Made by a program: the position numbers and the translations under genes. Below are positions 3,220 through 6,229 of a DNA stretch of 6,584 nt, one piece after another. Source of the stretch: a virus (Duplodnaviria; Heunggongvirae; Uroviricota; Caudoviricetes); the IMG/VR virus record IMGVR_UViG_2663762945_000004, positions 1-6,584 of that record, one strand, 5' to 3'. How positions within the stretch are numbered: the stretch's first letter is position 1; each line of letters starts with the position of its first letter. The notes under the pieces are model-generated. The model was not told the origin of the DNA. It ran no database searches and saw only the letters and a program-made list of their open reading frames with translations.

Positions 3220-3639
3220 TTAAGAGGCTTTTTGTTTTTTCTTTCGTGCTAACTCTTCGTAAATTGCATTGTACTTCTGTTTTTTCTCTTCAAGAGTTTT
3301 TAAAAGTTCATCTGTCTCACTGTCAGGGAGCTCGTCCAGAAGGTCAATGATGATTTTTTGTCTTGGATTTAACTCCTGATAGAAACGTACCTGTCCACTT
3401 TCTTCTGTATCCTCTCCCAAAAGATAGGTTGGTGTTGTTCCTATTAGTGTTGCTAATTCCCTTAATTTCTCCCGGCGAGGAATTGTTTCGCCATTAAACC
3501 ATTTGCTAACCGCTTTTGGTGTTAATTTCATTCGACGGGCAATTTCTGCCTGCCTTCCATGTTGTTCATAACCAGCGTTTTCACAGGCTAGCGCAAGCCT
3601 ACTGGCGAACTCTTTACGCGCTTTATCTTCATGAACCAT
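3220..3639 (-). CDS. Prophage repressor, HTH XRE family (CI-like, 139 aa), no LexA-like S24 peptidase domain
   Basis: ORF-track protein has an N-terminal XRE-type helix-turn-helix (QAEIARRMKLTPKAVSKWFNGETIPRREKLRELATLIGTTPTYLLGED) and a short charged, probably helical C-terminus (EELARKKKQKAS). It is divergent from a Cro-like gene. No SD precedes the ATG, consistent with a leaderless transcript as for lambda cI from pRM. Confidence 0.85.
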   Translation of the reverse strand: MVHEDKARKEFASRLALACENAGYEQHGRQAEIARRMKLTPKAVSKWFNGETIPRREKLRELATLIGTTPTYLLGEDTEESGQVRFYQELNPRQKIIIDLLDELPDSETDELLKTLEEKKQKYNAIYEELARKKKQKAS

Positions 3640-3718: not shown

Positions 3719-3973
3719 ATGAACCAGAAAACACTTGAAGATGTAATCAAAACTGTTCGCGTTGCTGTTGTGGCCGACGTTTGTGGTGTCAGCCAAAGAG
3801 CAATCTATAAATGGATGGATAACGGAAAATTGCCTCGCACAGAATATACCGGCGAAACAAATTACGCTGAAAAAATCGCTCTTGCATCAAACGGATTATT
3901 TTCTGCCGATGCAATTTTAACTATTGGCAGGAATAAAACTACTACGAAAAAGCTGATGGGAGTTGATTCATGA
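3719..3973 (+). CDS. Cro-like HTH regulator, YdaS family (84 aa)
   Basis: ATG at 3719 preceded by GAGGGTG. Protein MNQKTLEDVIKTVRVAVVADVCGVSQRAIYKWMDNGKLPRTEYTGETNYAEKIALASNGLFSADAILTIG... has the Cro/YdaS-type HTH pattern. Divergent from the repressor. Its TGA stop overlaps the next gene start (ATGA at 3970-3973). The track ORF starts upstream at 3647 but lacks an SD there. Confidence 0.8.
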   Translation: MNQKTLEDVIKTVRVAVVADVCGVSQRAIYKWMDNGKLPRTEYTGETNYAEKIALASNGLFSADAILTIGRNKTTTKKLMGVDS

Positions 3974-4395
3974 AAATCAAGCATGAACACATCCGCATGG
4001 CGATGAATGCCTGGGCGCATCCGGACGGCGAAAAAGTACCGGCTGCGAAAATTACCAAAGCGTATTTCGAGCTGGGAATGACGTTCCCGGAACTGTATGA
4101 CGACAGCCATCCGGAAGCCCTGGCTCGCAATACTCAGAAAATTTTCCGCTGGGTGGAGAAAGACACCCCTGATGCGGTTAAAAAAATTCAGGCGTTGTTA
4201 CCAGCTATCGAAAAAGCAATGCCACCTCTGCTGGTGGCCCGAATGCGCAGTCATAGCTCAGCCTATTTTCGGGAACTAGTGGAGACGCGGGAACGACTGG
4301 TGAGAGACGCTGATGATTTTGTCGCAGTGGCGATCGCTGGTTTCAACCAGATGAATCGTGGTGGCCCTGCAGGAAATATTGTGGCTGTGCATTGA
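3970..4395 (+). CDS. ydaT: YdaT-family protein (CII-like regulator; family historically annotated as a putative toxin), 141 aa
   Basis: Protein begins MKIKHEHIRMAMNAWAHPDGEKVPAAKITKAYFELGMTFPELYDDSHPEALARNTQKIFRWVEKD..., which I recognise as the YdaT family of Rac-like prophages. Start overlaps the upstream stop by 4 nt, indicating translational coupling. Confidence 0.78.
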   Translation: MKIKHEHIRMAMNAWAHPDGEKVPAAKITKAYFELGMTFPELYDDSHPEALARNTQKIFRWVEKDTPDAVKKIQALLPAIEKAMPPLLVARMRSHSSAYFRELVETRERLVRDADDFVAVAIAGFNQMNRGGPAGNIVAVH

Positions 4396-4466
4396 CTCGC
4401 AATATTCATACCGGATCGCTTCCGGCAATTTGTGAGTAAAAAGATTCGGTATCAAAAGAGGTGAGT

Positions 4467-5228
4467 ATGGCTAACGCCTGGCTCAGATTATGGCATGACA
4501 TGCCAAATGACCCTAAGTGGCGAACAATTGCCAGGGTGTCAGGGCAGCCAATTGCAACAGTGATGGCAGTGTATATCCACCTCCTGGTGAGCGCGTCACG
4601 AAATGTCACGCGAGGTCACATTGAGGTCACGACAGAAGATTTGGCAAGTGCGCTCGACGTGACAGAAGAGGTAATTGATTCAATTTTGCAGACGATGCAG
4701 GGGCGGGTACTTGATGGTGATTTAATCACTGGATGGGAAAAACGCCAGGTGCTTAAAGAGGACAACGGCAATATTTCGCAAACCGCAAAATCTCCTGCAG
4801 AGCGCAAGAGGGCGCAGCGAGAGAGGGAAAGAAAGCGGGAACAAAATGGCGATTGTCACGGCGCGTCACGAAATGTCACGCATATGTCACGACGAGTCAC
4901 GACAGATAAAGATACAGATAAAGATACAGATCAAGAAGATCAAAACACTATGGTCCATGGCGTAAAAAACGCCACGAACCAGGCAGGGGATGTTCAGACC
5001 GTCAATCTTGGTCAGCCAGCAGGCACGACACCGGAAGCCGATTCAGCGTATGCGCTGAAAGCCGATTCGGGCGCTGTGCAGCAGGTGATGACCGCAAGGC
5101 CGGAGCAATCACACCAACTGCAGCAGCCCGAAGCCGATTCCGCCATTCAGCGGGAAGCCGATCGGGTAGTCCCGGAAAACACCGGGCAGTCTGTGGGACG
5201 AGTGGATTACCGGAACTCGGGCTGGTGA
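4467..5228 (+). CDS. Replication initiator-like protein (lambda O analogue) with iteron arrays inside its coding sequence
   Basis: ATG at 4467 with AGAGGTG upstream (the track starts at GTG 4461). N-terminus MANAWLRLWHDMPNDPKWRTIARVSGQPIATVMAVYIHLLVSASRN... followed by a winged-helix-like segment (TEDLASALDVTEEVIDSILQTMQGRVL). An acidic TDKDTDKDTDQEDQ linker is encoded by a tandem repeat. Two GTCAC iteron arrays lie inside the gene, as the lambda origin lies inside O. The family name is not verified. Confidence 0.65.
   Translation: MANAWLRLWHDMPNDPKWRTIARVSGQPIATVMAVYIHLLVSASRNVTRGHIEVTTEDLASALDVTEEVIDSILQTMQGRVLDGDLITGWEKRQVLKEDNGNISQTAKSPAERKRAQRERERKREQNGDCHGASRNVTHMSRRVTTDKDTDKDTDQEDQNTMVHGVKNATNQAGDVQTVNLGQPAGTTPEADSAYALKADSGAVQQVMTARPEQSHQLQQPEADSAIQREADRVVPENTGQSVGRVDYRNSGW
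4592..4636. repeat. Iteron array 1: four GTCAC(G) direct repeats at 10-11-bp spacing
   Basis: GTCAC begins at 4596, 4606, 4616 and 4627. The units are gtcacgaaat, gtcacgcgag, gtcacattgag and gtcacgacag. Confidence 0.6.
4855..4905. repeat. Iteron array 2: five GTCAC(G) direct repeats at 10-11-bp spacing (candidate replication origin core)
   Basis: GTCAC begins at 4855, 4865, 4875, 4886 and 4896. A 21-bp segment GCGCGTCACGAAATGTCACGC is shared exactly with array 1 (4592-4612 and 4861-4881). The array is immediately followed by an AT-rich tandem repeat. Confidence 0.6.
4902..4940. repeat. Tandem 12-bp repeat (acagataaagat twice, then a degenerate third copy), AT-rich, adjacent to iteron array 2
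   Basis: acagataaagat at 4902-4913 and 4914-4925, then acagatcaagaagat. It encodes the TDKDTDKDTDQEDQ linker and is placed like the AT-rich unwinding region next to the lambda ori iterons. Confidence 0.6.
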
Positions 5229-6229
5229 TCGTTAAGCCGGGCCGTGAATCCATGCCGGTATTCCACAATACCCGGGTACTGGTGGAGCCGGAACCGAAAA
5301 GCATGCGTAATCTGCCGTCCGGGGTCGTTCCTGCCGTTCGCCAGCCGCTGGCGGAGGATAAATCATTACTGCCATTTTTCAGCGACGAACGAGTGATTCG
5401 TGCTGCTGGTGGCGCTGGCGCATTGTCTGACTGGTTACTGCGCCATGTTAAATCCTGCCAGTGGCCACACGGCGATTATCACCACAGTGAAACCGTCATT
5501 CACCGTTATGGTACCGGCGCAATGGTGTTGTGCTGGCACTGCGACAACCAGCTGCGCGACCAGACCTCCGAATCACTCGGGCAACTTGCTCACCAAAACC
5601 TGTCTGCATGGATGATTGACGTCATACGCCATGCAATGAATGGCTCGCAGGAACGGGAATTATCGCTGGCTGAATTATCCTGGTGGGCGGTCCGCAATCA
5701 GGTGGCGGACGCGCTACCGGAAGCGGTATTACGTCGTTCGCTGGGGTTGCGTGCGGAAAAAATCCGCTCAATGTACCGTGAAAGCGACATCGTACCGGGA
5801 GAGCAGACCGCCACCAGCATACTGAAACAGCGCACAAAAAATCTTGCGCCGCTGCCTCACGCCCACCAGCAACAGAACCCACCACAGGAAAAGACGGTGG
5901 TCAGCATTGCCGTTGATCCTGAGTCTCCGGAATCTTTCATGAAACGACCTAAACGTCGCCGCTGGGTTAACGAGAAATACACACGCTGGGTGAAGACACA
6001 GCCGTGTGCGTGTTGTGGTAAGCCAGCCGACGATCCCCATCACCTGATTGGTCATGGTCAGGGCGGAATGGGGACAAAATCTCACGATATTTTCACGCTA
6101 CCGCTGTGTCGGGAGCATCACAACGAGCTTCATGCGGATCCTCTGGCGTTCGAAGAAAAGCATGGTTCTCAGGTTGATTTAATTTTTCGTTTTCTTGATC
6201 ACGCCTTTGCAACTGGCGTGCTTGGGTAA
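5225..6229 (+). CDS. DUF968-family prophage protein with a C-terminal Cys/His HNH-like motif (putative nuclease or zinc-binding)
   Basis: The track ORF starts at GTG 5225, overlapping the upstream TGA (GTGA); an alternative ATG is at 5252, and neither has a clear SD. The C-terminus CACCGKPADDPHHLIGHGQGGMGTKSHDIFTLPLCREHHNELH matches the motif I associate with DUF968 (YdfU-like) proteins. Family assignment is from memory. Confidence 0.7.
   Translation: MIVKPGRESMPVFHNTRVLVEPEPKSMRNLPSGVVPAVRQPLAEDKSLLPFFSDERVIRAAGGAGALSDWLLRHVKSCQWPHGDYHHSETVIHRYGTGAMVLCWHCDNQLRDQTSESLGQLAHQNLSAWMIDVIRHAMNGSQERELSLAELSWWAVRNQVADALPEAVLRRSLGLRAEKIRSMYRESDIVPGEQTATSILKQRTKNLAPLPHAHQQQNPPQEKTVVSIAVDPESPESFMKRPKRRRWVNEKYTRWVKTQPCACCGKPADDPHHLIGHGQGGMGTKSHDIFTLPLCREHHNELHADPLAFEEKHGSQVDLIFRFLDHAFATGVLG

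Follow-up and report, generated by a model that had tools for sequence, protein, structure and literature searches.

A probable replication origin with two iteron arrays inside the initiator gene of a Rac-like lambdoid prophage

Introduction

Replication origins embedded in initiator genes are textbook knowledge for phages lambda and SPP1, where iterons are found only in the flexible linker. Separate repeat clusters are known from phage P4, in which ori and crr consist of 8-base-pair (bp) direct repeats that form two initiator-bound clusters, both needed in cis, with looping between them. They are also known from iteron plasmids (P1 incA, F incB/C, R6K), in which copy number is set by an additional array that can loop or handcuff. 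In this study, we analyzed a 6,584-base stretch of DNA, here called the window, which constitutes the entire contig CDRC01000327.1 (assembly GCA_000939695.1) and contains the part of a Rac-like lambdoid prophage devoted to immunity and replication. Within its initiator gene we found two arrays of a GTCAC(G) repeat, an A-rich run and an inverted repeat, and we consider it likely that this region (4591–4981) is the cis-acting origin of the prophage replication module, lying inside the gene of its own initiator.

Among the closest described systems, lambda has four 18-bp dyad-symmetric iterons in O codons 117–145, with an A-rich run and an inverted repeat after them (PMC3349717). The gp38 protein of SPP1 binds direct repeats beside an unwinding element in its own gene and, in addition, a second, distant site (PMC6316719). 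The Rac prophage has been reported to hold an active origin, oriJ (PMC3945230). In the literature searched, we found no account of the origin described here or of its iterons, and nothing relevant on DnaT-like phage initiators, non-lambdoid Shiga toxin (Stx) replication types or the map position of oriJ. Judging from the sequences compared below, what appears to be new is a bipartite intragenic phage origin in which one array falls within the coding sequence of the folded, presumably DNA-binding domain, with this plan kept across specificity classes.

Results and discussion

Two iteron arrays, an A-rich run and an inverted repeat in one gene

The following features of the initiator gene carry the argument (nt, nucleotides; aa, amino acids):

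4467..5228, + strand: initiator remnant gene, 253 aa, carrying both arrays
4467..4760, + strand: coding sequence of the folded N-terminal domain (N-domain), aa 1–98; helical, helix-turn-helix plus hairpin; presumed iteron-binding domain
4591..4631, + strand: iteron array I, four GTCAC(G/A) units at 4595, 4605, 4615 and 4626; codons 43–55
4658-4663, − strand: lone inverted GTCACG, 27 bp past array I; codons 64–66, 'DVT'
4851..4901, + strand: iteron array II, five GTCACG units at 4855, 4865, 4875, 4886 and 4896; codons 130–145
4902..4950, + strand: purine-rich, A/T-rich run, (ACAGAT/AAAGAT)n, with 6- and 12-bp periods; encodes TDKDTDKDTDQEDQ
4951..4981, no strand assigned: imperfect 13-nt inverted repeat, TGGTCCATGGCGT / ACGCCACGAACCA, with a 5-nt loop, directly after the A-rich run
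5209..5210, no strand assigned: deletion joint; to the left, initiator codon ~248; to the right, a point 37 nt inside a DUF968 (ydfU-like) gene

The units are spaced by 10/10/11 bp in array I and by 10/10/11/10 bp in array II, and the first unit of array I is separated from the first unit of array II by 260 bp. All nine lie on the + strand, and eight of them read GTCACG. The first-pass annotation of this DNA had described nine GTCAC(G) units, arranged as 4 + 5 at 10–11-bp spacing and about 260 bp apart. We recovered every one of these positions, together with the inverted GTCACG at 4658–4663, which that annotation had overlooked. The exact 21-bp block that it had reported as common to both arrays was found as well (GCGCGTCACGAAATGTCACGC, at 4591–4611 and 4861–4881). 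A second common block, of 11 bp (GTCACGACAGA), occupies 4626–4636 and 4896–4906, with an equal offset of 270 bp.

The maximal density of GTCAC was five per 50 bp, compared with three or fewer in 2000 dinucleotide-preserving shuffles. When the protein was kept fixed and synonymous codons were resampled, the mean was 1.76 GTCAC, and none of the 20,000 resamples reached nine. The clustering of GTCAC is beyond chance and also beyond the level forced by the protein.

In the protein, according to the AlphaFold2 model, array I corresponds to the end of helix 3 and the loop preceding the helix-turn-helix, and array II to a disordered linker, with predicted local distance difference test (pLDDT) values below 50 from aa 135. 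Array II is directly abutted by a tandem repeat, ACAGATAAAGAT, present in 2.9 copies at 4902–4936 and having an underlying 6-bp period with five copies at 4902–4931 (Tandem Repeats Finder). Its translation, TDKDTDKDTDQ, bears out the earlier description of an adjoining 12-bp AT-rich tandem repeat coding for TDKDTD. The GC content over 4900–4959 (0.33–0.35) is the minimum of the gene, and the AT skew there is +0.46 to +0.63; the run at 4902–4950 is presumed to be the DNA-unwinding element.

The inverted repeat at 4951–4981, which codes for 'NTMVHGxKNA', is a possible third element of the origin. Its DNA (TGGTTCATGGCGAAAAAAnCGCCAgTGAACC) is conserved among proteins that are just 47–57% identical, also in those with a different N-domain. 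On the − strand the same repeat was scored as resembling a terminator, with a T-rich tail after the hairpin; overall, counts in the promoter/terminator scan equaled the shuffle expectation.

The two-array plan in related genes

We next asked how typical this arrangement is of related initiator genes. Loci were collected from gamma- and beta-proteobacterial genomes (49) and, through specific proteins, from six more cases; 50 loci were analyzable. In 42 of the 50, the top-repeated 5-mer of gene nt 110–240 recurs at least twice at nt 330–560 and 0–1 times elsewhere in the gene. Arrays at the same two places in this many related genes support the first-pass proposal of an origin embedded in the initiator gene and made of iterons and an A/T-rich repeat.

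Three hexamer classes could be distinguished, namely GTCACG (the window and most loci), CGAACG and GTAACG, and in each locus a single hexamer builds both arrays. The first-pass annotation had proposed, as a check, a comparison of iteron and protein co-variation among homologues; the hexamer switches by subgroup and stays matched between the arrays. In all array-bearing loci array I starts near gene nt 129–139 with 10/10/11 spacing, and the end of array II directly meets the purine-rich run. This run, (AGATAA/AGATAC/AGAGAA)n, is located directly 3′ of array II in every iteron class and encodes an acidic DK/DT/EK peptide. Most GTCAC-class loci also possess one inverted unit, within which codon 65 is GTG in all 16 of the relatives that have Val at this position; the CGAACG class is without it. 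Last-to-first distances between the arrays range from 211 to 319 bp and are most commonly 227–229 bp; a single scripted value of 130 is spurious and is due to a stray GTCAC at gene position 259.

The first-pass annotation had interpreted the 21-bp block as a duplicated iteron block. The sharing of the block stands, and a recent duplication or gene conversion does not: blocks shared within a locus are no longer than those shared between loci (p=0.22), and the block corresponds to a double unit conserved family-wide, CGTCACGmAATGTCACGC. The two arrays represent an old design across the family.

The plan extends to initiators with other N-domains. The E. coli gene P0033 (L058:3001–4110) encodes the same C-terminal half behind an unrelated N-terminal domain, and it has two arrays of its own: AAGGGGCTT occurs three times at gene nt 172–205, within N-domain codons, and three times at 442–472, with 11-bp spacing, and the second array is followed by a purine-rich run and then by the same inverted repeat. 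Since the unrelated N-domain of P0033 comes with its own two arrays, the two-array plan is not bound to any single DNA-binding fold. The K-12 Rac gene ydaU (L065:3120–3977) represents a third N-domain type, DUF1376, and has the PPGFRG C-terminal tail in common. In ydaU, TGTTCAA-like repeats precede the same AAAGATACAGATAAAGAT run, and two GCTGATGTT(C/G)AA copies are located in N-domain codons. The purine-rich run is therefore also a feature of the unrelated P0033 and K-12 YdaU initiators.

Two groups of relatives depart from the common layout. In the GTAACG class (L022, L027, L060), array-I units are often 21 bp apart and in a single frame, or form GTAACGTTAC palindromes. GTAACG is unreadable in one of the three frames because of the TAA stop there, and coding constraint visibly shapes iteron spacing in this class. 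In L040 and L050 (Serratia, Pantoea), there are no arrays, and a domain with a YVYYV...GISxNPWAR motif is inserted after the N-domain; this insert, resembling a GIY-YIG/T5orf172-type domain, gives a different architecture on the same N-terminal domain.

Selection on the DNA itself

The first-pass annotation had also suggested that this DNA is under both coding and cis-acting constraint. Since the units are 10 bp apart, the reading frame of the hexamer shifts by one with each unit, and all three frames are used, giving Cys-His, Ser-Arg and Val-Thr (CH, SR and VT). No single peptide motif is conserved, because the hexamer is translated in the three frames in turn. Synonymous variation was assessed as normalized entropy at conserved residues in 18 divergent, gap-free GTCAC-class genes. 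Within codons 43–56, the codons GTC, ACG, GGT, CAC, GTC and ACG are each found in all 18. Synonymous entropy in the GTCAC class is 0.14 in array I compared with 0.81 elsewhere in the domain (Mann-Whitney p=2e-6), and in nine genes of the CGAACG class the corresponding values are 0.14 and 0.65 (p=1.4e-5). The arrays are under selection at the DNA level that is separate from selection on the protein. Dual constraint is thus supported by synonymous sites frozen in two iteron classes and by the three-frame reading of the hexamer.

Both arrays encode segments tolerant to change: for array I it is a loop with lower pLDDT, which in relatives accommodates 7-aa insertions (21 nt, equal to two units), and for array II the disordered linker. 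Because the loop tolerates insertions and the linker is disordered, both arrays sit where the protein can absorb a sequence imposed by the DNA.

These data bear directly on the idea that the repeats are a by-product of a repeated peptide motif, of slippage in the linker or of chance, and have no cis role. The linker is indeed disordered and of low complexity, and the copy number of both the iterons and the 6/12-bp unit varies among close relatives, as would be expected of such a by-product. However, the three-frame hexamer keeps no one peptide motif, the synonymous sites of array I are frozen within a folded domain, synonymous resampling never produced the observed count, and the arrays co-vary across classes. 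We therefore assign this explanation a negligible probability, the lowest of those considered.

Which protein reads the repeats

Exchanges of modules between related prophages make it possible to separate the repeats from individual regulators. Loci L058 and L059 have nearly the same cI (99% identical) and cro (97%), yet their N-domains and repeats differ. The window and L058 have YdaT proteins that are 97% identical, yet again both N-domains and repeats differ. In the opposite case of the window and L059, cI and cro are unrelated and the C-domains differ; the N-domains are 89% identical and the repeats are the same. As far as these swaps show, the repeat type tracks the initiator N-domain and not cI, cro, YdaT or the C-domain, and we infer that the N-domain binds the iterons.

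The same swaps argue against binding of the repeats by a different regulator of the phage, namely CI, Cro or the cII-like YdaT, which would, for example, serve an internal promoter through 10-bp-spaced repeats. Lambda CII activates at TTGC-N6-TTGC inside coding sequences, and short intragenic direct repeats with 10-bp spacing are just this type of target; there is also a weak promoter-like match on the − strand at 4879–4852. On the other hand, repeats differ between loci in which cI and cro (L058/L059) or YdaT (window/L058) are near-identical, the number of promoter-like matches is that expected from shuffles, and the arrays are present in hosts and phages with unrelated immunity regions. Regulator binding is accordingly a very improbable explanation.

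The loop encoded by array I (aa 43–56) is the segment of the folded N-domain that differs most clearly between iteron classes. By class, the loop sequences are SRNVTRGHxDVT, SNATERGRTQN and QNVTRDENGVT, with the helix-turn-helix and the N-terminal helices largely shared. No class-separating residues outside the loop were clear by eye in a comparison that is confounded by phylogeny. One might speculate that the ~40 nt of array I are at once a set of binding sites and the code for the surface loop that helps to read them, so that origin specificity could be switched in one step, if the recombination or conversion involved changes array II as well. We regard this idea as doubtful.

A truncated member of a large initiator family

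The window product matches phrog_3729, 'replication initiation protein', with E=4e-172 over profile positions 1–249 of 356. Pfam and NCBIfam have no family for it (Pfam at E<=0.01). A full-length relative aligns with model positions 1–118 of 121 of Pfam Phage_rep_org_N (PF09681), with a score of 12.8 bits (E=0.12), which falls short of the cutoff of 23.3. Matches of the initiator to PHROG replisome-organizer and DnaD-like families range from 1.7e-6 to 6.6e-10, and 'phage replisome organizer' is the NCBI name for most homologues. Pfam and PHROG scans revealed no primase or helicase domain and no Rep family match. The possibility that the initiator is a lambda O homologue was considered and rejected: the full-length relative has no Phage_rep_O match at E<=1, and the iterons of the window are 6-bp direct repeats in two clusters.

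At the structural level, AlphaFold2 modeled aa 1–98 with pLDDT 72–94, followed by a basic helix at aa 110–126 and disorder from aa 135 on. A Foldseek search of the AlphaFold model against PDB gave no significant match, the weak ones all being winged-helix regulators. The profile of the full-length family matches structures of the DnaT C-terminal domain (6aep, E=2.9e-9; 9zbt, 9e-7), and full-length relatives match the DnaT tail as well. Taken together, these matches suggest that the initiator is a distant 'replisome organizer' with, in its full-length form, a DnaT-like C-domain.

The first-pass annotation had placed the arrays inside an initiator gene. This proved correct as to location; the gene is not intact, being a 253-aa remnant according to both the phrog_3729 match and the alignments. 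In alignments of the initiator gene, the window is identical up to nt 5209 to phage Tritos (OV696610, 32105–33175), to E. coli 504838 and to S. flexneri SFBU0723. Shared sequence ends at aa 248, and full-length relatives continue for another 107 codons beyond the joint, to 356 aa in total (for example, Shigella flexneri L003); the window copy lacks these 107 aa, including the DnaT-like C-domain. The joint carries TA / CCGGA microhomology. Past it, the initiator frame continues for five codons out of the DUF968 frame and then stops. The deletion truncates both genes; the predicted 'GTG start' at 5225 is a non-native DUF968 start. Also lost are a DUF977 gene and several kilobases of downstream genes. 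We found the joint neither in complete E. coli genomes nor in phage records. It is real and not an assembly error, since the identical 253-aa product is present in five independent assemblies.

The window retains an intact cis element, 100% identical to the one in full-length relatives. With the initiator C-domain cut off and the downstream module gone, the window origin is probably unable to fire by itself. It should stay silent unless a full-length GTCACG-class initiator is supplied in trans, for example by a co-resident prophage, and any such initiator must be a full-length relative, because the window protein lacks the DnaT-like C-domain. Conceivably, the truncated 253-aa protein, with its presumed DNA-binding domain still in place and the DnaT-like domain missing, is kept because it has a dominant-negative effect on incoming phages that share its iteron class.

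Another kind of length variation was noticed in the disordered linker, where a 36-nt direct repeat (75% identical, 5031–5066 / 5127–5162) encodes PEADSA... twice. Several E. coli homologues (324-aa forms such as P0005) are without exactly the segment between the 36-nt repeats, which suggests recurrent deletion by recombination between them.

A model of the origin and its alternatives

How might these elements work together? In the model that we favor, the helical, winged-helix-like N-terminal domain would bind the GTCACG direct repeats, which lie one helical turn apart, and this spacing would stack the initiator along a single face of the DNA. Array II, with its five units, would load the initiator beside the purine-rich A/T run, which would melt, with the conserved inverted repeat lying beyond. 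In full-length relatives, the DnaT-like C-domain would then engage single-stranded DNA, the loader (DnaC/IstB-like or lambda-P-like) specified by the following gene, or both. Array I, consisting of four units and one inverted unit ~230 bp upstream in the codons of the DNA-binding domain, would constitute a second, selected binding array. Its most likely role would be that of an auxiliary or enhancer element that strengthens or shapes the initiator–DNA complex, with a control role as the main alternative.

Several observations weigh against an origin of this kind. We found no replication or binding experiments for this initiator family in the literature searched. The A-rich run is only ~66% A+T, and a search for DnaA boxes with up to one mismatch from 4440 to 5300 gave none. 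The labels 'winged helix' and 'replisome organizer' rest on weak matches, the N-domain itself being without a significant structural or Pfam match. The co-inheritance of array I with the N-domain is trivial, because both are the same physical DNA, which makes array II the sole independent signal. Helical phasing between the arrays shows no constant phase and so gives no support for a rigid loop. Finally, seven or eight family members have no recognizable arrays; because of these members, array I at least appears to be dispensable in some lineages.

The main alternative is that only array II and the A-rich run form the origin and array I is a control element that is not part of the firing origin. 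Initiator bound to its own coding sequence could block early rightward transcription (autoregulation), be titrated, or pair origins (handcuffing). Arrays of the incA type titrate initiator or pair origins in P1/F-type plasmids. Such a role would agree with the location of array I, ~230 bp from the A-rich run, not helically phased with array II, and in a transcribed gene upstream of most of the coding sequence. Moreover, some family members keep the A-rich run without array I, and in lambda extra iteron copies inhibit repLambda phage replication (PMC3349717). However, origins of lytic phages are not known to require negative copy control, and the two-array layout recurs with an unrelated N-domain as well as in genes like ydaU of K-12, which is at least equally compatible with a structural role. 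We therefore consider a pure control role for array I unlikely, though less so than the other alternatives.

A further alternative is that the arrays are a recognition site for partition (centromere-like) or for packaging. Plasmid centromeres of the parC type consist of sets of direct repeats spaced by ~10–11 bp, and two sets of direct repeats with one-turn spacing do recall R1 parC. Yet there are no partition genes in the window or related loci, the elements are integrated lambdoid prophages, and the arrays are always located within the initiator gene, beside the A-rich run. Recognition for partition or packaging accordingly seems highly improbable.

Gene order and genomic setting

Around the initiator gene, the window contains the following:

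Early-left operon: DicB, a Rha/Ash-type regulator, C4 antisense RNA, isrK and DicF
3220-3639, − strand: cI-like repressor gene
3719-3973: cro-like gene
3970-4395: YdaT/cII-like gene
Downstream of the initiator remnant: DUF968/HNH gene, then RusA

In relatives, the gene order is cI, cro, YdaT (cII-like), initiator and helicase loader, which supports the origin reading. The gene following the initiator is lambda-P-like in L059 and L063 and DnaC/IstB-like in L060–L062, and in Tritos-type relatives DUF977 occupies the helicase-loader position. In the window this position has been deleted and the DUF968 gene follows the initiator. Because a DnaC/IstB-like or lambda-P-like loader gene comes next in relatives, the initiator gene is in the 'O' position of a lambdoid replication module, though it is no O homologue.

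In Rac-type prophages of E. coli and Shigella, close relatives have recE-racC-kilR-sieB on one side and the right end of the prophage on the other. They also occur in temperate phages, among them Tritos and Evi, both of which share the iteron class of the window. For the initiator, more than 1,500 homologues were detected, and the replication module was found in most complete E. coli genomes. Those with any match have a median of two matching places and a maximum of nine, many of these matches covering only part of the query. The N-domain is encoded by just 25 phage records, with no classical model phage among them.

The early-left region yielded several side observations. C4 antisense RNA (1604–1691, − strand), isrK (1716–1792, − strand) and DicF (2028–2079, − strand) all have Rfam scores above gathering. 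C4 and isrK are located inside a predicted open reading frame of 284 aa (989–1843) with Ash and Rha domains; since both RNAs lie within it, the true start of this frame is probably further downstream, at the ATG near 1545. The region 989–1843 looks like an isrK/C4-controlled antirepressor-type module beside DicF-DicB. Between DicF and isrK, in the early-left transcript, there is a perfect 22-nt inverted repeat at 1866–1887 / 2000–2021 (AAGTGAATTTTGTGATGCGGTG / CACCGCATCACAAAATTCACTT) with its arms 112 nt apart, which could be a long RNA hairpin or a processing site. A trio of GTCAC at 2041, 2070 and 2111 (region 2041–2115) was considered as a third array and rejected, as it is in or next to the DicF RNA, with two of the three inside the DicF gene.

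Implications

If our interpretation is correct, a large initiator family of gamma- and beta-proteobacterial prophages carries a second selected array within the codons of a folded domain. This would be an example from nature of a protein code and a cis-acting code that overlap and leave a signature that can be measured at synonymous sites. The hexamer could serve as a simple predictor of origin specificity and incompatibility among Rac-like and Stx-related prophages. It also raises a testable question, namely what a second intragenic array adds to the firing or control of an origin. For anyone testing the window copy, it matters that its origin sits in a module crippled by deletion.

Comparison with known systems

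The first-pass annotation had likened the locus to the logic of lambda. This holds for the layout of iterons in the linker followed by an A/T run, and does not hold for an O-type protein, 18-bp dyads or a single cluster. In both systems, the origin (a probable one here) is inside the initiator gene, in the linker between the N-domain, for which DNA binding is presumed here, and the C-domain, which in full-length relatives would recruit the loader as that of O does, and both genes belong to a cro-cII-initiator operon. In both, a purine-rich A/T run comes after the iterons and precedes an inverted repeat, represented here by array II, 4902–4950 and 4951–4981, and even the codons nearly coincide (117–145 in lambda and 130–145 for array II). 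In contrast to lambda, the initiator is not O-homologous (no Phage_rep_O), its C-domain in full-length relatives is DnaT-like, and the repeats are 6-bp direct repeats at 10–11 bp rather than four 18-bp dyad sites. Furthermore, a second array is present in N-domain codons, whereas lambda has a single cluster and no iteron-like copy there, and in the window DUF968 is found directly downstream instead of a P-type loader gene.

The SPP1 organizer G38P (oriL, oriR) offers a similar parallel: direct repeats and an A/T-rich unwinding element lie within the organizer's own gene, and a second repeat set is located elsewhere. The NCBI naming of the present family as 'phage replisome organizer' and its weak PHROG replisome-organizer matches point in the same direction, although homology to Phage_rep_org_N is below threshold (E=0.12). 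The two systems differ in that oriR is ~13 kb away and has its own unwinding element, whereas the second array here is 230 bp off in the same gene and has no A-rich run of its own.

The likeness to P4 consists in short direct repeats in two separate clusters. There, however, the initiator is the alpha primase-helicase, unrelated to the initiator described here, which has no primase or helicase domain, and the clusters are kilobases apart and outside the codons of the DNA-binding domain. Iteron plasmids likewise have two iteron arrays flanking or overlapping the rep gene. Their iterons are 17–22 bp long, bound by WH1-WH2 Rep proteins, intergenic and accompanied by DnaA boxes, whereas the core here is 6 bp and no DnaA boxes were found.

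Finally, the K-12 Rac genes ydaU-ydaV share with our locus the same prophage backbone, in which recE, racC, kilR and sieB flank the relatives. YdaU has the PPGFRG tail, and its AAAGATACAGATAAAGAT run is likewise preceded by repeats, which are TGTTCAA-like. It differs in having a DUF1376 N-domain and a different repeat sequence. Considering the resemblance of the two layouts, oriJ may be located in the ydaU repeat region.

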